Origin: Scyliorhinus canicula
Lineage: Eukaryota
Assembly: GCF_902713615.1 (NCBI RefSeq)
Contig: NC_052157.1
Location: 130,491,425-130,555,424 of the forward strand
Length of the DNA: 64,000 nt
Direction: 5' to 3'
Part shown: positions 1,871 through 56,859 of the stretch, in pieces
How positions within the stretch are numbered: the first letter of the stretch is position 1
Layout: the number at the start of each line of letters is the position of its first letter
Translations under genes and position numbers: made by a program
The notes under the pieces: model-generated
The model's input: only the letters and a program-made list of their open reading frames with translations
Told to the model about the DNA's origin: nothing
Database searches by the model: none

Positions 1871-4620
1871 ACCTTGTCCCTAACTCCCCAAACACATACT
1901 ACTCTTTCCCAGTCTCCCCACCCACCATCTCCTCTATCCCGTCCACCCCACCTGCCATCCCCTCAACCCACAGTCCACCCTGCCCACTATCCCCTCTACC
2001 CAGAGATCCCCCATCTACTCTCTACCCAGTCTCTCCTGCTCATCTTCCCTCTACACCAGTCCCAACAACCCCCAGCCCCCCGCCTACTATCCCCTCTACC
2101 CCATCCCCCCACCCACCATCCCCTCTACCCCAGCCCCCCACCCACCATCCCCTCTACCCCAGCCCCCCGCCCACCCACCATCCCCTAACCCCCTCACCAT
2201 CCCCTAACCCCCCCACCATCCCCTCGACCTCCAGCCCCCCCACCATTCCCTATACCCCCAGCACCACCACCCCCTCTAACCCCAGCACCACCACCCACCA
2301 TCCCCTCTACCCCAGCCCCCCACCCACCATCCCCTAACCCCCCAGCAATCCCCCCACCATCCCCTCGATCTCCAACCCCCCTCCCACCATTCCCTCTACC
2401 ACAGCACCACTACCCACCATCTCCTCTACTCCAGCCCCCTCCCACCATCCCCTTGACCCCAGCACCACCGCCCACCATCTACTCTACCCCAGCCCCCCAC
2501 CATCCCCTAACCCCCCCCCCAGCAATCCCCTCGATCTCCAGCCCCCCCCACCATTCCCTCTACCCCCAACACCACCAACCACCATCTCCTCTACCCCATC
2601 CCCTCCCACCATCCCCTTGACCCCCAGCACCACCACCCACCATCTCCTCTACCCGCAGCCTCCTCCCACCATCCCCTTGACCCCCAGCACCACCCACCAT
2701 CTCCTCTACCCTCAGCCCACCATCCACTGCCCCCAGTCCCCCCACCCACCACCCACCATCTCCTCTACCCTCAGCCCACCATCCACTGCCCCCAGTCCCC
2801 CCACCCACCACCCACTGCCCCTCCGCCCACTGTCCCCTCGACCTCGTACCGCCTGCCCGCCATCCCCTCTACCTTCCCTCCACCCTCAGCCCCCTACCCT
2901 CAGCCCCCCTCCTCTACCCTAAGCCCCCCCTCCTCTACCCTCAGCCCCCCCTCCTCTACCCTCAGCCCCCCTCCTCTACCCTCAGCCCCCCCCTCCTCTA
3001 CCCTCAGCCCACCCCTCCTCTACCCTCAGCCCACCCCTCCTCTACCCTCAGCCCCCCCCTCCTCTACCCTCAGCCCCCCTCCTCTACCCTCAGCCCCCCC
3101 TCCTCTACCCTCAGCCCCCCCTCCTGCTCACCCTCAGCCCCCCCTCCTCTACCCTCAGCCCCCCTCCTCCTCTACCCTCAGCTCCCCCCTCCTCCTCTAC
3201 CCTCAGCTCCCCCCCTCCTCCTCTACCCTCAGCTCCCCCCTCCTCCTCAACCCTCAGCTCCCCCCTCCTCCTCTACCCTCAGCTCCCCCCTCCTCCTCCT
3301 CTACCCTCAGCTCCCCCTCCTCTACCCTCAGCTCTCCCCCCCCAGCTCTCCTCCCCAAGCTCTCACCCCCCAGCTCTCTTCCCCCCCCCCCCCCCACCAG
3401 CTCCCCCCAGCTCTCCTCCCCCGTTCTCTCCTCCCCCCCAAAACTCTCTCCTCTCCCCCCCCCCCTCTCTCCTCTTCCCCCCCCACTCTCTCCTCTCCCC
3501 CCCTCTCATCCTCTCCCCCCCCCACTCTCTTCCTCTCCCCCCCTCTCTCCTCTCTCCCCGCCCCCACCTCTCCTCTCTCCCCGCCCCCACCTCTCCTCTC
3601 CCCCCACTCTCTCCTCCCCCCCCCACTCTCTCTCCTCCCCCCCCCACTCTCTCCTCTCCCCCCCCCACTCTTCCTCTCCCCCCCCCACTCTCTCCTCTCC
3701 CCCCCCCACTCTCTCCTCCCCCCTCTCTCCTCTCTCCCCCCACTCTCTCCTCTCCCCCCCCCTCTCTCCTCTCCCCCTCTCTCTCTCCTCTCCCCCTCAC
3801 TCTCTCCTCTCCCCCCCCACTCTCTCCTCTCCCCCCCCACTCTCTCCTCTCCTCCCCCCCACTCTCTCCTCTCCTCCCCCCCCACTCTCTCCTCTCCCCC
3901 CCCCACTCTCTCCTCCCCCCCCCACTCTCTCCTCTCCCCCCCCCCCCACCTCTCTCCTCTCCCCCCCCCACTCTCTCCTCTCCCCCCCCCCACTCTCTCC
4001 TCTCCCCCCCCCCCACTCTCTCCTCTCCCCCCCCCCCCACTCTCTCCTCTCCCCCCCCCCACTCTCTCCTCTCCCCCCCCCCACTCTCTCCTCTCCCCCC
4101 CCCACTCTCTCCTCTCCCCCCCCCACTCTCTCCTCTCCCCCCCCTACTCTCTCCTCTCCCCCCCCCACTCTCTCCTCTCCCCCCCCCCACTCTCTCCTCT
4201 CCCCCCCCCCACTCTCTCCTCTCCCCCCCCCCCCCACTCTCTCCTCTCCCCCCCCCCCACTCTCTCCTCTCCCCCCCCCCACTCTCTCCTCTCCCCCCCC
4301 CCCCACTCTCTCCTCTCCCCCCCCACTCTCTCCTCTCCCCCCCCCCACTCTCTCCTCTCCCCCCCCACTCTCTCCTCTCCCCCTCACTCTCTCCTCTCCC
4401 CCCCCCACTCTCTCCTCTCCCCCCCCCCCCACTCTCTCCTCTCCCCCCCCCCCCACTCTCTCCTCTCCCCCCCCCCACTCTCTCCTCTCCCCCCCCCCCA
4501 CTCTCTCCTCTCCCCCCCCCCCCCCACTCTCTCCTCTCCCCCCCCCCACTCTCTCCTCTCCCCCCCCCACTCTCTCCTCTCCCCTCTCCCCCCCCCACTC
4601 TCTCCTCTCCCCCCCCCCCA
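1870..4620. repeat. ~2.7-kb C-rich low-complexity/tandem array with three successive unit types
   Basis: Units ~cccaccatcccctctaccccagc (1915-2830), ~ctcctctaccctcagccccccc (2880-3360), ~(c)n-actctctcctct (3400-4620). Confidence 0.95.
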
Positions 4621-4679
4621 ATACCATCGCTTCTACCCCAAAACCTCCTCTGCTCCAGTCAGCCCCTGACCCCCAATCC

Positions 4680-5100
4680 ACTCTCTGCCGTCCCTCCAGC
4701 GGGTCGGCAGCCGCCGCTCTTACCCGGCACCGTGCCGCGGAGGAGGGAGCTCTGCAGTGGGCGACAGTCTCCGGCAGCTCCCGGCGAGGGTGGATGGTGG
4801 AAGCGGCCATTCCCGCTCTCCATCCCCGGCTGCTCTCGCGGGATCTGGCGGCTGCACCCGTCTGCCTGACCTTTCACCCCGGTCTCCGCCAGGCCCGGAG
4901 CGGGCGGAAGCGGGAAGCCGGGAATCCGGCCGCCTGTGGACTGCCCCCTCGGTGTGTGAGCTGGGCCGCGGCCTGGTCGTGAACAACAGTGAGAACACCT
5001 GGCTGGTAAAACTGAGAGAAACAATCCTCATCCGAGTGGTTTTAGCGCTGGCGGCGGGGTGACTTTGATCTTTATTTCAGCCGTCTGGCGCTCACCGAAT
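4680..5100. promoter_or_regulatory. CpG-island bidirectional promoter shared by MYO19 (-) and PIGW (+)
   Basis: Dense CpG; tandem ETS-like GGAAG sites (cgggcggaagcgggaagccgggaat, ~4901-4925); minus-strand donor CGG|gtaaga at 4724/4723; possible plus-strand donor gtgagc near 4956. Confidence 0.75.
4724..4850 (-). other. MYO19: Probable non-coding exon 1 of MYO19 (5' end approximate)
   Basis: Strong donor CCGG|GTAAGA on the minus strand inside the CpG island; synteny. Confidence 0.45.
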
Positions 5101-15841: not shown

Positions 15842-16076
15842 AAGGGCAGCACGGTGGCCTAGTGGTTAGCACAACCGCCTCACGGCGCTGAGGTCCCAGG
15901 TTGGATCCCGGCTCTGGGTCACTGTCTGTGCGGAGTTTGCACATTCTCCCCGTGTCTGCGTGGGTTTCGCCCCCACAACCCAAAAATGTGCAGAGTAGGT
16001 GGATTGGCCATGCTAAATTGCCCCTTAATTGGAAAAAATAATTGGCTAATCTAAATTTTTAAAAAAATAAAATAAA
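15842..16076 (+). mobile_element. Short-form V-SINE in the GEMIN2 retrocopy 3'UTR
   Basis: 14-bp TSD aattgtgtcaagta at 15828-15841 and 16077-16090; A-rich tail. Confidence 0.93.
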
Positions 16077-26183: not shown

Positions 26184-26415
26184 GGGCAGCACGGTGGCAC
26201 AGTGGTTAGCATTGCTGCCTACGACGCTGAGGACCCGGGTTCGAATCCCGGCCCTGGGTCAATGTCCGTATGGAGTTTGCACATTCTCCCCGTGTCTGCG
26301 TAGGTTTCACCCCCACAACCCAAAGATGTGCAGGGTAGGTAGATTGGCCACTCTAAATTGCCCCTTAATTGGAAAAAATAATTGGGTACTCTAAATTTAC
26401 AAAATAAAAAATAAA
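26184..26415 (+). mobile_element. Short-form V-SINE inserted in the Harbinger transposase
   Basis: 16-bp TSD aatatagggcactccc at 26168-26183 and 26416-26431. Confidence 0.93.
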
Positions 26416-29206: not shown

Positions 29207-32200
29207 TGTCGTAAACCACTGTAGTGTATAATATGTGTATTGTGGTAAATGGCCACTGTATTATATGAAATGTGGTCAACTACTGCCCGATGGCTCCGCC
29301 TCCCCTCGAGCCCGGTATAAAGGTGCTGGTCTCCGCCTCTGCCCCAGTTCGGGATCTGAGGCCAGGAGTCTTTCTGTTTAGTTTATTAAAGTCTCAGTTA
29401 CGTTCACCACTCGTCGTGTGTTCATTGATGGCATATCTTATTTAATAAACTAAACCTCTAAGATGAATTCATCACTCAAGCCTGATTGCATGGAGCTGAA
29501 CCCACAGGCAGCCGATGCCACTGCAACATTCGAGCACTGGCTAAGCTGCTTCGAAGCTTACCTCGGATCCTTCACCGGAGACTTCACTGACCTCCAAAAG
29601 AAGCAGATCCTCCACGCAAGGGTGAGCCCGCAAGTCTTTCTTCTCATCAGGGACTCCCCCTCATATACGGAGGCGATAATGCTGCTGAAGGGACAATATG
29701 TAAAGTCTGTAAACGAGGTGTATGCTAGGCACCTTCTTGCCACAGACGACAATGCCCTGGCTAGGAATCACTAGCAGAATTCCTGCGTGCCTTGCGGGTA
29801 CACTGCCGGAACTGTGACTGGGTTATCGGCTACCCAACACGTGGAGCTGTTGATTAGGGACGCTTATGTCGCAGGCATGAAGCCAAACTACATCCACCAG
29901 CGATTGCTAGAAGGGGGTACACTCGGCCTCCCAGAGACAGTGCAGCTCTCAAACTCACTGGAGATGGCCTTCCAGAACATGGAGGCCTACACCTCCGACC
30001 GTGCGGCACCCTCGTGGACCTAGTGGGCGCCGTCATCGTCCAACCCGGGTGCGGTGCAAGCCTGTGCCGCGCAGCAGCCCGCCAATGCTGGAAGCCCAAA
30101 GTGCCTCTTTTGCGGCCAGGGTAATCATCCCAGACAACGCTGCCCTGCACGGAACACAATGGGTGTTGCAATGGGTGTGGGAGGAAGGGCCACTTTGCGA
30201 AAGCCTGCCAGGCCCGATCTCTCCCTACAGCTTCTAGGCCCAGCAGCACTGCCTGCTGCCTGTCGGGGCCGCTCCCAGCTGGGGGCGCCACCCGCCATGT
30301 GCGACCCGTGGGTGCCGCCATCTTTAACGCCATCTTGTACTCCACCCGCCACGCGCGACCCATGGGGGCTGCCATCTTGGGACCACTTTGCAGCCTCCCG
30401 GTAGACCTGTTCACCCGATCGTACGCTGGCTGTCGCTACCTCCGACTGGCCTACCCATCACCTTCCAAGGCTCGCCTCCATCACGTTCGACCAGTCCCGG
30501 CCTCATCACCTCACAAAATCTACGAAGACCGTCTGGATCAAAGGGCATGAGATGGCCTGTCTTTACGACTCCAGGAGCACAGACAGCTTTATACACCCAG
30601 ATACGGTAAGGCGCTGCTCCCTCCCAATTTTACCCGCGACCCAGAAAATCTCCCTGGCTTCCGGATCCCATGCAGTAGAAATTGGGGGTACTTTGTCGCG
30701 ACCCTTAATGTACAAGGCGTAGAGTACGCTAACTTCAAACTCTACGTCCTTCCCCATCTCTGCACTGCCCTATTACTGGGGCTCGACTTCCAGTGCCACC
30801 TCCAAAGCCTTACTTTAAAGTTTGGTGGACCCCTGCCCCCCCACTCACCGTCCGTAGCCTCGTGACCCATAAGGTCGCCCCACCCTCCCTCTTCGCTAAC
30901 CTCACCCCGGACTGTAAGCCCATCGCTACTAGGAGCAGACGATACAGTGCCCGGGACAGGACCTTTATCAGGTGGGAGGTCCAGCGATTCCTGCGAAAGG
31001 GGATCATTGAGGCTAGTACCATCCCCTGGAGAGTCCAACTGGTGGTCGTCAAGACTGGGGAGAAGCACCGGATGGGCATCGACTACAGTCAGACCATCAA
31101 CCTGTACACGCAGCTCGATGCGTAGCCCCTCCCCCGCATATCTGACATGGTCAACCAGATTGTGCAGTATCGAGTCTTCTTCACAGTTGACTTGAAGTCC
31201 GCATACCACCAGCTCCCTATCTGCCCGGAGGACCACCAATTCACTGCCTTCGAGGCAGATGGGTGCCTCTACCACTTCCTCAGGGTTCCCTTCAGCGTCA
31301 CCAATCAGGTCTCAGTCTTCCAACGAGAAATGGACTGAATGGTTGCCCAGTACGGGCTGCGGGCCACGTTCCCGTACTTAGATAACATCACCATCTGCGG
31401 CCATGACCAGCAGGACCATGAGGAAAACCTCCAGCACTTCCTCCACACCACTAAACTCCTGAACCTACAGTAAGGAAAAATGCGTTTTCCGTACAACCCG
31501 CCAAGCCATCCTTGGCTATGTTGTGGAAAACGATCCTATGGCCCGACCCCAACCGCATGCACCCCCTCCTGGAACTCCCCCTCCCCCCTGCCCCAAGGAC
31601 CTGAAGAGATGCCTGGGGTTCTTCTCTTACTATACCCAGTGGGTCCCAATTATGTGGACAAGGCCCGTCCACTTATTAAATCCACCATTTTTCCCCTGAC
31701 GGCTGAGGCCCGTCTGGCCTTCAACCGCATCAAGGCAGATATTGCCAAAGCCGCAATGCACTCTGTGAACAAATCCATTCCGTTCCAGGTGGAGAATCAG
31801 GCGGGCAGGCCCGTGGCTTTCTTCTCCTGTACCCTCCATGCCTCCGGAATTCGACAGTCCTCCGTCGAAAAGGAAGCCCAAACCATTGTGGAAGCTGTGC
31901 GACATTGGAGGCATTACCTGGCTGGCAGGTGATTCACTCTCCTCACTGACCAACGGTCAGTTGCCTTCATGTTTAACAATACACAGCGGGGCAAGATCAA
32001 GAACAAGATTCTGAGGTGGAGGATCGAGCTCTCCACCTACAACTATGATATCGTGTATCAACTCGGGAAGCTCAATGAGCCCCCAGATGCCCTATCCCGC
32101 GGTACATGTGCCAGCGCACAAGTAGACTGACTTCGGGCCCTCCACAATGACCTCTGTCACCCAGGTTCACCCGTTTTTTTCACTTTATCACAACTTTCAA

Positions 32201-32506
32201 CCTGCCTTACTCCATCAAGGAGGTCAGGATCGTGACCAGGGACTGCCAGGTCTGCGCAGAGTGCAAATCGCACTTCTTTCAGCCAGACAGGGCGCACCTG
32301 GTAAAGGCCTCTCGCCCCTTTGAGCGCCTCAGCATCGACTTCAAAGGGCCCCTCCCCTCCACTGACCATAACGTGTACTTCCTCAACGTGTTTGACGAAT
32401 ACTCAAGATTCCCCTTTGCCATCCCATGCCCTGACATGACCTCTGCCACCATCACCAAGGCCCTGCACAGTCTTTTCACCTTGCTCGAGTTCCCCACCTG
32501 CATCGA
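29207..32506 (+). mobile_element. Gypsy LTR retrotransposon A, 3'-truncated: 5' LTR (~29207-29439), gag, PR, RT, RNase H, partial integrase, all disrupted
   Basis: LTR with TATAAA 29316-29321 and ATTAAA 29385-29390; gag ATG 29463 and Cys-knuckle CLFCGQGNHPRQRC; RT DYSQTIN..QLDA, VDLKSAYHQ, PYLDNITICG; RNase H SVEKEAQ.IVEAVRHWRHYL; integrase FERLSIDFKGPLP. Confidence 0.9.
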
Positions 32507-32937
32507 CGTAACTGGGTTCAACTGTGATGTCATGCTATATGATAGAAGATATAAGACAGTTACTGTTTAGCTGCATAGGTGAACAGTGGCCATTTGGGTA
32601 AGGTACTAGAGGGGAACAGGCTCCTTTGGAATCATAAGCAAGGGTCAATACCTTCAACAGGGATGAAAGAAAACTGAGAAAAACATTTTTAGTAGCAAAA
32701 ATACAGTGAATGGAATATCATTGACAAAGATCCATCCCATTGACTCGCTATTGTAGCTCTTGCCAAATTTAATTCTCTTATCATTTAGGAAATACATTCA
32801 GTGTCACAGGTGAGATATCTCAGGAGATACACAAAGTGCAGTATAAATCTTTATATTATGCAGTGTTTTGCTCAGAAATAAATCGGCTAGGCCACCTTTT
32901 GCATAAATTCTATCTGAACTGCATTGTCATGCAACCA

Positions 32938-32959: not shown

Positions 32960-34177
32960 ACTACTTTAGATCCACAAGCACTGTCCTCAGCTGAAAACTA
33001 CAATTTATGCTTGTTTTATTCTTTCTACAAGGAGGAGCACAAAGCAACCAATACGTGTGAGCAAATAACATATACTCACCAACATCCAAAATAATGTTCA
33101 ACATTCAGGATTCTCGACAATGTGCACGCAGATTCCACAAATAAAGTACCATAAAACCATATAAATTGGACAACATTCTCAATAACTTTATTGCTTCCGT
33201 GGTGGCTCAGCTCTTTTACCCAGACAATTGTTAAGTCGTACAAATCTCAAAGGTCGGACCAGCAATTAGTACTGGGTTTGCTTATTTTAGGTAGGGCGAC
33301 AGTGGGGGAACTAAAATTGGTCCAGTGGGAAGGAAAGTTTGGCGAGTTCCTCCTCTATCCCTGAAGCTTGCTGGATGTACTAATACCAGATATCAGGTGG
33401 CAACAGGAATTATCTCTGATGCCTGTCATAAAGGAAATATTCTAGCCACATGAATGTTGTTATCAAGAATTACCTAACAAATGGTAATAATAATAATTAA
33501 CTTTATTATTGTCACAAGTAGGCTTACATTAACACCGCAGTGAAGTTACTGTGAAAATCCCCTAGTTGCCACACCGACACCTATTCAAATACACTGAGGA
33601 AGAATTCAGAATGTCCAATTCGCCTAATAAACACGACTTTCGGGACTTGTGGGAGGAAACCGGAGCACCCGGAGGAAACTCACACAGACATGGGGAGAAT
33701 GTACAGACTCCACCAGGGCAATTATGAATCAATGGAGAAAAGGGGAACATTTTGACGATGGTGGTCGTTACAAATTTAAAGTTATATTTTGGGATTGTCT
33801 CTTTATTTCAAGGAAAAATGAGGAATGAAGAGGTTGTGTGGCTTTGTTGCTATGGGGATATTAGTGTCCAAGTCGACTTACTGGATAGAATGTGCAAGAG
33901 GCAAGGGCATTTGTGATGATTGTAGGTAGACTATTGGTCTCCAAGTCTCATATAGCGGTATTAGGAATGTCAGATTCTATAAACGGTTACACCTTAAACT
34001 GTCTGTTCAATTCCTTGATAGGATGGAGTTGGGGGTCTAGTAGATAGCTAACCTGGATAGATACATGGACCATCTGTTTCACATTACCATAGAGATGGTC
34101 CCATTAACAAGATCATCCTTTGGGCTATCAGGAAGTCAAAGGCCAATACGTCAGCCTCTCTCCCCAACTGCACTCCT

Positions 34178-35977
34178 GGATCCTCCCCTTCCAAGTTGAA
34201 AGCAATGCATCAGACGTCGCTCTGGCCGCCACCCTCAACCAGGCAGGCAGGCCCGTGGCATTCTTTTCACGCACCCTCCATGCCTCCGAAATTTGGCACT
34301 CCTCCGTCGAGAAGGAGGCCCAAGCCACCGTAGAAGCTGTGCGGCATTGGAGGCATCACCTAGCCGGTATGAGATTCACTTTCTTCACTGACCGACGGTC
34401 GGTTGCCTTCATGTTCAATAACACACAGTGGGGCAAGATCAAAAATGATAAAATCTTGAGGTGGAGGATCGAGCTCTCCACCTTTAACTACGAGATTTTG
34501 TATCGCCCCGGTAAGCTCAACGAGCCCCCCGATGCCCTATCCCGAGGTACATGCGCCAGCGCACAAGTGGACCTACTCCGGACCCTACACGGGTCACCCG
34601 GTTCTTTCACTTCATAAAGGCCCGCAATCTGCCCTACTCCATTGAGGAGGTCAGGGCTATCACCAGAGACCGCCAGGTCTGCTCGGAGTGCAAACCACAC
34701 TTCTACCGGCCAGACCGAGCGCTCCTAGTGAAGGCCTACCGCCCCTTTGAACGCCTCAGCGTGGATTTCAAAGGGCACCTCCCCTCCACCGACCGAAACA
34801 CGCACTTCCGTAACGTGGTCGACGAATATTCCAGATTCCTCTTCGCTGTCCCATTCCCGATATGACGTCTGCCACCGTCATCAAAGCACTCAAAACCATC
34901 TTCGCCCTGTTCGGTTTCCCCGCCAACATCAACAGCGACCGGGGATCCTTCTTTATCAGTGATGAGCTGCATCAGTACCTGCTCAGCAAGGGCATTGCCT
35001 TGAGCAGGACGACCAGCTACAACCCCCGGAGAAACAGGCAGGTGAAGAGGGCGAACGGGACAATCTGGAAGGCCGTCCAGCTGGCCCTACGGTCCAAAAG
35101 TCTCCCAGTCTCCCACTGGCAGGAGGTCCTCCCTGACGTCCTTCACTCCATCCGATCGCTACTTTGCACTGCAACTAATGCAACCCCCCATGAACGTCTC
35201 CTTGCCTTCCCCAGGAAGTCCACCTCCGGGGTTTTGCTCCCAACGTGGCTGACAGCTCCAGGACCCGTTCTCCTCCGCAAGCACGTGCGGCTCCACAAGG
35301 TGGACCCGTTGGTCGAGTGGGTACAGCTACTCCATGCAAACCCGCAGTACGCTTATGTAGCGTACCCCTTCGGCCACCAAGACACAGTCTCCCTCAGGGA
35401 CCTGGCACCAGCTGGTTCCCCACCCCCGCCCCCCATCTGCCCGGGCACTATCCTTCCTTCCCCCAAGCGCACCTCACCACAGCCCCCGCTCCAGGATGAT
35501 CCGTCCTCCCCTTGGTCCCACCTGGGGATGAAGATGAGGTCTAAAAGCTCCCGGAGTCACCGGCGACCGAGCCGGCATCTGCATCGCCACCGGGACTGCG
35601 GCGCTCACAACGGAGGATCAAGGCACCCGACTGGCTGAATTTGTGAACTTTCCCCAAAATGTACACTTTAAAATGCTCACATACATGTAACTAGTTTTTC
35701 CACCACCCCCGCTGGACTCTTTTTTAACAGGGGGTGAATGTGGTAGTCACCACTGTTTGTACATATCACATACATGAGATGTAATACGGTAAGGCTCCTG
35801 TACTACAGGTGCAGGGTAGATTCCTGCCTGCTGGCTTCGCCCAGTAGGCGGAGTATAAATGTGTGTGCTCACCGAGCTTCAGCCATTTCGGCAGCAGCTG
35901 CAGGAGGCTATACATCTCTGCTTAATAAAGCCTCGATTACACTCTGCTATCGTCTCATCATAATTGATAGTGCCTCA
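34178..35977 (+). mobile_element. Gypsy LTR retrotransposon B, 5'-truncated: RNase H, integrase, PPT, 3' LTR 35739-35977
   Basis: FQVESNASDVALAATLNQAGRPVAFFSRTL; integrase core SDRGSFF..RTTSYNPR.N.QVKRANG; PPT aacagggggtgaa 35726-35738; LTR TG...CA with TATAAA and AATAAA 35924-35929. Confidence 0.9.
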
Positions 35978-43861: not shown

Positions 43862-46800
43862 TTGTTATGCCACCCTGGGCAAGTGCGCGGTCAATTCCAG
43901 CCCCACATGCCCCAGAGTCACAACACAAGTGAATTAATCAATAATTCTTATAAAAAATTCCAAAATCTTGGTTGCCCAATAATTAAAGTCACCAGGATTG
44001 TAATTTGAACCACAATTACAGTTTATTTAGGACCAGATTAATAGTAAAATACACAGCAGATACAGTTGGTTAAATATTAATAAGTATCTGACTCCGAATA
44101 TAACTTGCCTCGCCCCCACTCTTTACATACACAAGACAAACAAACAGAATGGGGGGGGGGGGGGGTGGTGGTTAGAGGGAAACATGTAAATGAAAGAGAA
44201 GAGTCTTTGCTTTAGATGATGGGCCCATGCAGGCTTTCTCCACACTGAGCTTGAGAATCATAGCCTGTACTCACAATTTTCCTGGTGAGACAGAGGGCTG
44301 AATTCTCCGCCATGCCGTGCCACATTTCCGTTTCACCCTGCCGGCAGGATGCTCCGTTACGCTGGCTGGTCAATGGGGTTCCCATTGTGGGGCATCCCAC
44401 GCCGTCGGGAAACCCCTGGGCTGCCGGCAAAATGGAGCATCCCGCTGGTGGAGAATCCAGCCCAACGTCCCTGTTTCATCAGGCTTTGCTCTCAGTTCGT
44501 GGTCTGGTTCAGTACCCGTTTTCAGGAATCCAACACCCACAGGTTTATTGGAGAGAGAGAGAGAGAGAGTTGGCTGGACCTTTTTGGTGAAGTTTATTAG
44601 CAGTTTTCTGGAGAGGATTTTTCTTGCTCTTTTATCTCCGTTGACAGAATTAAAAATGAAACTAAAATACAACCTCGTGGCTCTCAAAAGCATTGCAGAG
44701 GTATAATATCCAATCATCACTTGTTACTGGGTAGAGCATGGCCTTCTGGGCTCATATATTGGCCACCAGCCAAATCAAAGAGTTCCTCCCCTAAAAGAAT
44801 GAAACTACAGGGGAAGGAGGTTTTGTTATGAAATATGCAAAACATAAATCAAACACATATCCATCCCCAGTATACAATTTCTCTTCCCAGTCTCTACATT
44901 GGTAACTAGTCAGCCCTTAAACACATGCATCCACAATCACATTATCCTTTCCGAGGCGATGTACAATTTGAACATTGAACAGTTGTAATAATAAACGCCA
45001 ACAAAATAATCTTATGTTCCGGGTCTTAAACTTCTCAATAATCGCAGTGGATTATGGTCTGGAAAAGTCCAGGGCGGCCAGCACCAATTTGTCCTCCAAC
45101 ATGGCCGTCAATCTCTCAAACTGTACGTGGCATCTGTGGACCATAGTGGTTTCGCTTGCCTCTGCAACATGTCCAACATGCATTGTATTTCAGTCTCTAA
45201 CTGAGCTAGCCTCTGTGGGTTTAGTTGAGAGGAATGTGGCTTTATTGGTTCAGAGTTTATTATATCTATACCATGATTAGCTAACAGAGTGCCCCCTAGT
45301 GTTTCCCTATAGCTGTCTCTACTGTTTCAGTATCTTGTCTGATGCAGTCAGTCTTTTCTGATTGTCAAATTTTGAGGATCTCCTCGAACTAAACTGCAAG
45401 CAGTATTGTCAATGTGGGGAGAAATATTTGGTTCATTTTTAACCAATAAACATTATTCAACCTTACCAACTTTACATTATCCCTTGTCCTTCACGTGTTT
45501 ACCTTCAGCAACAAGTGCAGCTGAGGGTTCAATCCTCTCAGAGTTGGTTGAACATAAGAACATAAGAACTAGGAGCAGGAGTAGGCCATCTGGCCCCTCG
45601 AGCCTGCACCGCCATTCAATGAGATCATGGCTGATCTTTTGTGGACTCAGCTCCACTTTCCGGCCCGAACACCATAACCCTTAATCCCTTTATTCTTCAA
45701 AAAACTATCTATCTTTACCTTAAAAACATGTAATGAAGGAGCCTCAACTGCTTCACTGGGCAAGGAATTCCATAGATTCAAAGGTTGACTTTATATGCAC
45801 CATTCATTGTGTTACAGTTTTTATCTCCTCATCTGATTTTTTGTAATCATAGCTCTTATCCTTGTTTTGTAATACGGACTGAAACAATTTGTACTTTTCA
45901 GATTTCAATTGTTCTTTTTTACTTTCAGAATCAGAGAATGGCACATTATTGACTCTATGAACATTTTGGATTTGTTAACAGATTCGGTGGTAGAACCACC
46001 ACCTGGTTCTCCATCCACCTCCTCTTAGTTTTAAAAAGGAATTATTAGGGCAGCACGGTGGCACAGTGGTTAGCATTGCTGCCTACGGCACTGAGGACCT
46101 GGGTTCGAATCCCGGCCCTGGGTCACTGTCCGTGTGGAGTTTGCACATTCTCCCCGTGTCTGCGTGGGTTTCACCCCCACAACCCAAAGATGTGCAGGGT
46201 AGGGGGATTGGCCACGCTAAATTGCCCCTTAATTAGAAAAAATAATTGGGTACTCTAAATTTATTTTAAAAAAGCAATTATTTACTGATATACTGATAAA
46301 AGAAGCTATCTGATTTTTTTTATCTCGAAGTGGCACTGTAGACTTGTACAAGGATGTGGGTTAACCAGCCGTTCATTTGATATCGCTTCACAGTCCTCAC
46401 TGTCCCCGTTCTGACTAACTGATGCCACACTATCATGTATATTTTCCTTCAAAGCAGGCACGCTCTGGGAAATATTTGCATCTGAATGGCAATGGGTTTA
46501 TAAGGGGCAGTAGCAAATTACTTTAAGAAAAGCCCAATTCATTTTCTTCTTCTAATGTGCTGCTTCTTTCGAGCTTTGGAAGAATTACTTGACATTTGTT
46601 CAAGAGCAGTTAGTGAAGGGTCTAATCGATAACAGCTTTATCATTAGTTCATAATCAGAACCGAGATTGAATTCAGAATTCTCGCCCTACTCTTCGTCAC
46701 TGTCTTTACACTCCTCTTTCTTATGGTCACCTTTGGTTTTCGAATTCTCAGAATCTGGTTCTCTACTAGATTTTATCTTTGACAACCCCCTCTGAGGAAT

Positions 46801-52756: not shown

Positions 52757-53373
52757 TCCCTCAGTCACCAAACACCCAACTTCAAAACCCTACTGCAACC
52801 CACCCCCCCCCATCAAACTCCCTCAGTCACCAAACTCCCCTCAGCACCCTACTGCAACCCCCCTCACCAAACTCCCTCAGTCACCAAACTCCCCTCAGTA
52901 CCCTACTGCAACCCCCCTCACCAAACTCCCTCAGCCACCAAACACCCAACCTCAGCATCCTACTGCAACCCCCCCTCACCAAACTCCCTCAGCCCACCAC
53001 ACTCCCAACCTCAGCACCCTGCTGCAGCCCCCCCTCACCAAACTCCCTCAGCCCACCACACTCCCAACCTCAGCATCCTACTGCAACCCCCCCTCACCAA
53101 ACTCCCTCAGCCCACCACACTCCCAACCTCAGCATCCTACTGCAACCCCCCCTCACCAAACTCCCTCAGCCCACCACACTCCCAACCTCAGCACCCTGCT
53201 GCAGCCCCCCCTCACCAAACTCCCTCAGTCACCAAACTCCCAACCTCAGTACCCTACTGCAACCCCCCTCAGCCACCAAACACCCAACCTCAGCATCCTA
53301 CTGCAACCCCCCCCTCACTCACCAAACTCCCTCAGCCCACCACACTCCCAACCTCAGCACCCTGCTGCAGCCC
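52757..53373. repeat. C/A-rich minisatellite, ~59-bp unit
   Basis: ccccctcaccaaactccctcagcccaccacactcccaacctcagcatcctactgcaacc recurring at 52971, 53030 and 53089. Confidence 0.92.
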
Positions 53374-53499
53374 AAGGCGGTACTCCCAGCCCAGATCTGG
53401 TTCAGGGCCACCTGAACTTCAGGATGCCCTGTGCCAGTGAACCAATCTTTCCTCTTACGCACTCCAGACAAGGAGGTTTATTGGCACCAATTGGGGGGG

Positions 53500-56841: not shown

Positions 56842-56859
56842 TGGGGGCTCGAGGGGGAT
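56842..56859 (+). promoter_or_regulatory. Primer-binding site, tRNA-Pro type
   Basis: TGGGGGCTCGAGGGGGAT versus canonical TGGGGGCTCGTCCGGGAT, 3 nt after the LTR end. Confidence 0.8.

Follow-up and report, generated by a model that had tools for sequence, protein, structure and literature searches.

A non-chromovirus Ty3/gypsy clade in Scyliorhinus canicula that probably primes reverse transcription with the first nucleotides of its own RNA

The stretch of DNA analysed here, called the window, comprises 64,000 nt of contig NC_052157.1 of Scyliorhinus canicula (positions 130,491,425 to 130,555,424 of the forward strand), a host with a genome of 4.2 Gb. Its central part contains the remnants of elements of two LTR retrotransposon families, A and B, the features of which are collected in Table 1. 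The bounds of the family A LTR were set by comparison with other copies of the family, in which the terminal CA is followed by one spacer base and then by the leader; the window copy shows CT and one extra base at this place. Between 56300 and 61400 the window also carries a decayed Gmr1-like element (family C), with the integrase (IN) ahead of the reverse transcriptase (RT) and a TGG-type primer binding site (PBS) at 56842, where an earlier note on this DNA had placed a tRNA-type PBS; many relatives of this element are present in the genome (L226-L235). Long C-rich tandem arrays (units of ~21 nt) and a 59-nt tandem repeat occupy 2000-5000 and 52765-53400. Dispersed repeats resembling tRNA-derived SINEs were seen at 15844-16059, 26184-26399, 46048-46263 and elsewhere.

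Table 1. Features of the family A and family B elements, in window coordinates
Feature	Position	Strand	Basis or remark
5′ LTR, family A (Ty3/gypsy)	29207..29438 (end approximate)	+	TG start; other copies end in CA
TATA box (TATAAA)	29316..29321	+	Sequence
Initiator	29344..29350	+	Predicted +1 = A29346; TATA-initiator spacing, matched independently by inverted-tract end points
Predicted 45-nt self-primer, +1 to +45	29346..29390	+	Inferred from captured-primer insertions
Leader-pairing arm, 3′ end = ATTAAA hexamer (29385-29390)	29376..29390	+	Sequence, conservation
Predicted second helix (first three bases downstream of the arm opposite 29430-29432, close to where U5 ends)	29391..29432	+	Folding prediction, without shuffle control
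Predicted cleavage point	29390/29391	+	Folding prediction, without shuffle control
Leader arm at PBS position, no TGG	29441..29455	+	Sequence
Broken gag-PR-RT-RH-IN remnant (stops, frameshifts), gag ATG at 29463; truncated in IN near 32510, no 3′ LTR	29463..32510	+	
Family B element, 3′ half: RH-IN remnant, polypurine tract ending at 35738	34100..35738	+	
Family B 3′ LTR	35739..35977	+	TATA at 35854, predicted +1 at 35885, AATAAA of the arm ends at 35929

The leader arm of the family A copy is the exact reverse complement of the LTR arm (15 of 15 positions), and no TGG-initiated PBS follows the LTR. Both observations had been made in the earlier note, and both hold beyond the window. Among 30 family A loci, which are the best 30 of 40 scored and include the window's own, the arm is retained in 29, the remaining one (L006) being rearranged, and TGG was found at the leader start in none of the 30. 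An LTR variant with an extra 5′ segment ahead of the usual LTR start occurs in this family (L011, L022, L028, L161, L162 and L173). The additional tctt/aaga pairing that had been proposed did not stand as a conserved feature: it needs T29369, a base private to the window copy, since the other listed copies and nearly all RNA reads have G at this position. The 126-nt region taken as a whole folds no better than its shuffles (z −1.2), so that the case for the stem is one of conservation. For family B, the predicted counterpart was recovered in 10 of the 11 gag-adjoining LTRs present among 30 LTR loci, five of which contain the exact predicted 14-mer.

An alignment of 21 copies of the two families, free of gaps across R, provides 15 pairs and 315 arm/leader cells. 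Arm and leader stay paired across the two families: 97.5% of the cells are paired, against 32-50% in slid controls. None of 500 shuffles reached the observed number of paired cells or the observed covariation score, both of which are inflated by the relatedness of the copies; seven of the 15 pairs are changed on both sides, a count that is not above the shuffles (291/500). An architecture motif that fixes only six pairs matched the genome 8,401 times, compared with 13 matches for the backwards control. In the first 30 of these matches, which were looked at more closely and two of which are not elements, the nine unconstrained pairs average 7.7 with the arm of the same locus versus 4.5 across loci. 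Many more families of the same architecture reside in this genome (L236-L265); a short helix-forming CAGCTG motif recurs in them at about +6 to +16 of the predicted primer, and several of the captured tracts described below end there.

The same arrangement was found in other hosts. The nearest named RT homologues come from catsharks and rays, and homologues were found in sharks and rays, whipworm, corals and anemones, damselfly and sea cucumber, most of them as single gag-pol frames of ~1,200 aa with two Cys/His knuckles. The set from other hosts consists of 88 loci taken from metagenomes and from animal-like contigs in bacterial bins; 52 loci include the gag start, 50 of them with enough upstream DNA, and for many loci the LTR ends were checked against the 3′ LTR. 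A perfect stem of at least 12 bp (12-19 bp) is present in 39 of the 50 loci, where shuffled sequences reached a maximum of 11, and in 21 of the 24 clusters formed at 75% gag identity, with letters that differ from those of the shark families. One of the three other clusters has 9 bp in place and two are contigs with short upstream DNA. The stem begins one base past the CA of the LTR (two in L113), the arm end mostly reads AA/RCC (the stroke marking the end) and the leader measures only 15-46 nt to the gag ATG. The pairing is also specific, since arm and leader of the same family form 15.0 bp on average compared with 3.9 bp for cross-family combinations (24 families), only 2 of 552 of which reach 12 bp. 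Of 33 loci folded, 32 form the cis stem with pair probabilities exceeding 0.8. Folding also predicted, without a shuffle control, a helix starting right after the arm in 25 of the 33; a conserved U5-leader helix beyond the PBS was not seen in these 33 loci. Relatives were not found among viral contigs. Loci L061-L068 lie on contigs of bacterial metagenome-assembled genomes that carry animal-type retrotransposons, several amid satellite repeats, and are likely to represent host contamination of the bacterial bins.

The location of the arm within the transcript was predicted from promoter motifs. In both families an initiator A is found 30-31 nt after the TATA box, at a distance of exactly 44 nt from the end of the arm further downstream. 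This spacing puts the arm at +31 to +45, in agreement with the earlier estimate of ~30 nt inside the predicted transcript. In 23 of the first 30 motif matches an initiator occurs at the arm end minus 44 (0 to +2), and in 23 of 30 a TATA box lies at −28 to −32 relative to that point. Outside this genome, TATA and initiator with the same spacing were found in 1 of 26 folded loci (L129) and TATA alone in L140, so that support for the 45-nt length is confined to the families of this host. RNA reads mapped neither the start nor the poly(A) site of family A, and those of family B displayed no joint, no start and no poly(A) pile-up. Given that most non-shark loci have no TATA/initiator at the arm end minus 44, a classical Tf1 geometry may hold in some hosts: the RNA would start at the arm, the primer would be only ~15 nt long and the clade would represent another Tf1-type self-primer. 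The fixed TATA/initiator distance in 23 of 30 loci makes this an improbable account, as do the inverted tracts of this genome, which continue for 30 nt beyond the arm before they end at the initiator.

These inverted tracts belong to 39 aberrant loci in which LTR, spacer and PBS are followed directly by the reverse complement of R. Family A contributes 18 of these chimeras after a DNA search (nine loci were first found by pattern) and family B 21; backwards controls for both patterns gave none. Nineteen candidates were examined in family A, of which L179 was dropped as no chimera, and one more candidate lies outside the count. In 16 of the 39 the inverted sequence runs through U3 to the LTR start, forming palindromes of ~420 bp. 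Four of the 16 have exact 5-bp target duplications and two have duplications with 4 of 5 bases, the others being without a clear left end or duplication. Palindromes of this kind (L163, L166, L167, L168, L175, L207 and others), each of whose two ends is an LTR start and which are flanked by 5-bp target duplications, are likely to be integrated fold-back plus-strand strong-stop DNA.

The other 23 chimeras stop close to the predicted start of transcription: 13 at −1 to +3, nine at +6 to +19 and one at −12, so that 22 of 23 stop at or inside the start when the 13 at −1 to +3 are counted as such. The position of L197, one of these 13, was assigned by eye; taken at −10, to which the script extended it by way of a gag microhomology, it would leave 12. 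The 13 stops have a binomial probability of ~1e-15 under uniform stopping over 165 positions (+19 to the LTR start) and of 6e-5 if stopping is uniform within R alone. Most of the 23 then switch into gag or pol, often at short microhomology; in L172 the gag-to-RT sequence is inverted after the captured tract. Both LTRs lie within the fetched DNA for 16 of the 23, and 11 of these are flanked by an exact 5-bp duplication (that of L170 read by eye), two by one with 4 of 5 bases and three by none. The presence of target duplications at two-LTR chimeras indicates that they were made before integration. The captured tracts differ from their own LTR at 1.63 non-CpG positions versus 2.69 when LTRs are swapped (19 loci, 0 of 5000 permutations; L161, L197, L173 and L191 were left out for indels or short tracts), which shows that they come from the same subfamily, though not necessarily in cis. 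A strand-switch joint from 29390 to 29437, leading from the arm end into inverted U5, was also present among the RNA reads of two stranded runs (9 and 3 reads) and was considered as direct proof of priming. This was rejected, because the same joint exists as DNA and the loose read ends match the flanks of L159 (by eye); the reads are therefore attributed to transcription reading through a fold-back insertion and carry no weight here. The L159 fold-back insertion is transcribed in RNA runs X20-X22.

The chimeras fit plus-strand synthesis along a retained self-primer of ~45 nt. According to the reading preferred here, to which a probability of about 0.7 is assigned, the front end is that of a non-chromovirus Ty3/gypsy element in which the PBS is paired to an arm within the element's LTR and the 5′-terminal ~45 nt of the element's RNA serve as primer, the cut being likely just after the poly(A) hexamer. 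Transcription would start at the initiator ~31 nt after TATA, a motif prediction with which the fossil end points agree, and nucleotides +31 to +45 would pair with the leader one base past the LTR, as sequence and covariation indicate. The RNA would then be cut after +45, at the junction with the second short helix, a position set by where the pairing stops, the next base being mismatched. By analogy with Tf1, the cut would most probably be made by the RNase H of the element; an Rfam search returned nothing near the gathering score and thus no known ribozyme. RT would extend the cut 3′ end into U5, and the first strand transfer would rely on the portion of R that extends from +46 to the poly(A) site. 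The primer would stay attached, the plus strand normally copying its last 15-16 nt as PBS. In this way every cycle would renew the PBS as a copy of the arm, and covariation would be expected mechanically. If the plus strand sometimes ran to the cap and jumped into internal sequence, the 23 chimeras would result, and if the PBS end of the plus strand folded back on its own arm, the 16 palindromic ones. Chimeras could also arise when an intact RNA is co-packaged and the PBS end of the plus strand anneals to its arm and is extended along it as far as the cap. On this route +1 would still be mapped and the pairing still used, but the chimeras would not identify the RNA that primes.

A primer taken from the element's own R, whether cut in cis, supplied in trans or drawn from the 3′ R, is very probable overall. 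The tRNA-independent primer from R that had been postulated is well supported by the covariation and by captured tracts ending at the predicted +1. In the trans version, nucleotides +1 to +45 would come from a short transcript ended at the poly(A) site of the 5′ LTR or of a solo LTR, co-packaged, annealed to the PBS and trimmed to the end of the duplex. A hexamer located 40 nt from the cap and the very large number of LTR copies (more than 2,500 and more than 3,100 first-look candidates in the searches of the two families) would favour such transcripts, and all the chimera data are compatible with them. This origin is nevertheless unlikely, as the captured tracts match the LTR subfamily of their own locus, folding strongly favours the cis stem and the conserved AA/RCC junction, together with the second helix, suggests a recognised structure in cis. 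That the genomic RNA supplies the primer from its 3′ R, after cutting or trimming back to the hexamer, has the least probability of all: the same arm is present in the 3′ R and 16 of the 39 chimeras extend through U3, but the sharp stop at +1 would be unexplained, and the chimeras that cross U3 go no further than the end of the LTR, as fold-back of plus-strand strong-stop DNA explains.

The position of the poly(A) signal gives the stem a second possible meaning. The hexamer (AATAAA or ATTAAA) ends the arm in both window families and in 16 of the 22 clusters with a stem, is missing in five and mixed in one; in L063/L065, L072, L075 and L123 (four loci, two clusters by one count) it lies in an unpaired loop. 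HIV-1 and other retroviruses possess a 5′ poly(A) hairpin whose stem, close to the 5′ end, conceals the hexamer. Contrary to that hairpin, the partner of the arm here occupies the PBS position and thus is not part of the LTR, and some families do without the hexamer. An account in which the stem mainly masks the 5′ poly(A) signal, an unrecognised host RNA primes and the chimeras derive from plus-strand ends annealed to the arm of intact RNA would be in keeping with the frequent hexamer and with a partner located outside the LTR. It is hardly probable, considering that the stem is kept in the five clusters whose arm has no hexamer, that some hexamers are unpaired, that the leader arm begins one base past the LTR, where a primer must end, and that leaders differ by family, so no single host RNA fits. 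Because five of 22 clusters have no hexamer in the arm, poly(A) masking is not required; what stays constant is that the PBS position is paired. That masking of the 5′ signal is a real second role of the stem under self-priming, possibly as a side benefit, is open to considerable doubt. Promoter-proximal suppression could silence a 5′ poly(A) site without a stem.

The elements show Ty3/gypsy features, namely TG..CA LTRs, a polypurine tract, the order PR-RT-RH-IN and a short target duplication, and the best PDB match of the RT is the Ty3 RT; the Gag profile had no PDB match. Chromo family profiles detected a chromodomain in none of 40 full-length polyproteins. This sets the clade apart from Tf1/sushi elements, which are chromoviruses with the primer at the 5′ end of the RNA, held in a pretzel of flanking helices (PMC10085805). 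On the two features tested, the chromodomain and a paired self-primer located at the very 5′ terminus of the RNA, the clade falls outside Tf1/sushi, its arm being predicted at +31 to +45. It shares short LTRs and marine invertebrate and fish hosts with the Mag A/B/C, Cigr-1, MolGy, CsRn1 and Gmr1 clades (PMC6238403, PMC2582038, PMC3601003). CsRn1 elements have a tRNA-Trp PBS and a CHCC Gag motif (PMC2582038), whereas the present clade has no TGG PBS and two C-x2-C..H..C knuckles in Gag, and Gmr1 elements carry IN before RT (PMC6238403, PMC2582038, PMC3601003), whereas IN follows RT-RH here. In a quick RT tree of 45 rows (L067 and L068, having no RT, were left out) the shark rows nest among invertebrate-type rows, apart from the Gmr1-like sequences that served as the only outgroup. 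As Tf1, sushi, Mag and Cigr-1 references are not among the rows, the clade is left unnamed; it may be Cigr-1 or one of the MolGy clades, and we take the two Gag knuckles to recall the Mag lineage. An RVT_1 profile search of this genome gave 150 matches. A DUF4939 profile search of it for a sushi-type comparator found no match, and the SH3_Tf2-1 profile matches considered for the same role proved to be family C, that is, Gmr1-like.

To our knowledge, self-priming has been shown only for fission-yeast Tf1 and is assumed for its chromovirus kin and for some plant copia elements. Tf1 and Tf2 use no tRNA: the PBS pairs with the 5′ end of their own RNA, which RT cleaves and extends (PMC10085805, PMC4600332, PMC5341516), and the ends of Tf1 cDNA retain PBS DNA (PMC11042837). 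The present clade likewise has a PBS complementary to its own RNA and no TGG, and the helix predicted right after its arm resembles one flank of the Tf1 pretzel; it is likely, by analogy, to work as Tf1 does. It differs in that the paired arm is at predicted +31 to +45 and not at the extreme 5′ end, usually ends on a poly(A) hexamer, and is found in elements with a short leader, a two-knuckle Gag and no chromodomain. Self-priming has also been predicted for the plant TAR copia elements (Houba, Osr-1) and for Tcn1, and for 12% of the plant elements surveyed, on the same criterion of an LTR sequence complementary to the first bases past the 5′ LTR (PMC6317226). These belong to other lineages and other hosts, and the passages devoted to them give no primer length, poly(A) link or captured-primer insertions (PMC6317226). 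Among the papers searched, Repbase entries (which may note self-priming for families of this kind) lying outside the search, none dealt with self-priming in a non-chromovirus clade of animal Gypsy elements, with an arm that the hexamer terminates or with insertions of captured primers.

A broader proposal can be made tentatively, at rather less than even odds: an animal Gypsy clade extending from corals to sharks would have evolved self-priming independently of Tf1/sushi, with a capped primer of ~45 nt that is cut behind the hexamer and never removed, a helix that also hides the 5′ poly(A) signal and copying errors that map the primer start to the base. Self-priming in a separate and abundant animal clade (more than 8,000 matching sites in this genome), with a geometry in which the primer is long, the arm internal and the hexamer the place of the cut, would bear on the question, posed in PMC3601003, of whether hairpin priming is an ancestral trait or one that has arisen repeatedly. 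Captured-primer insertions offer a readout, from sequence alone, of primer start and length for any family suspected of self-priming. PBS finders based on tRNAs would miss or misjudge the clade, and its members should escape silencing by 3′ tRNA fragments.
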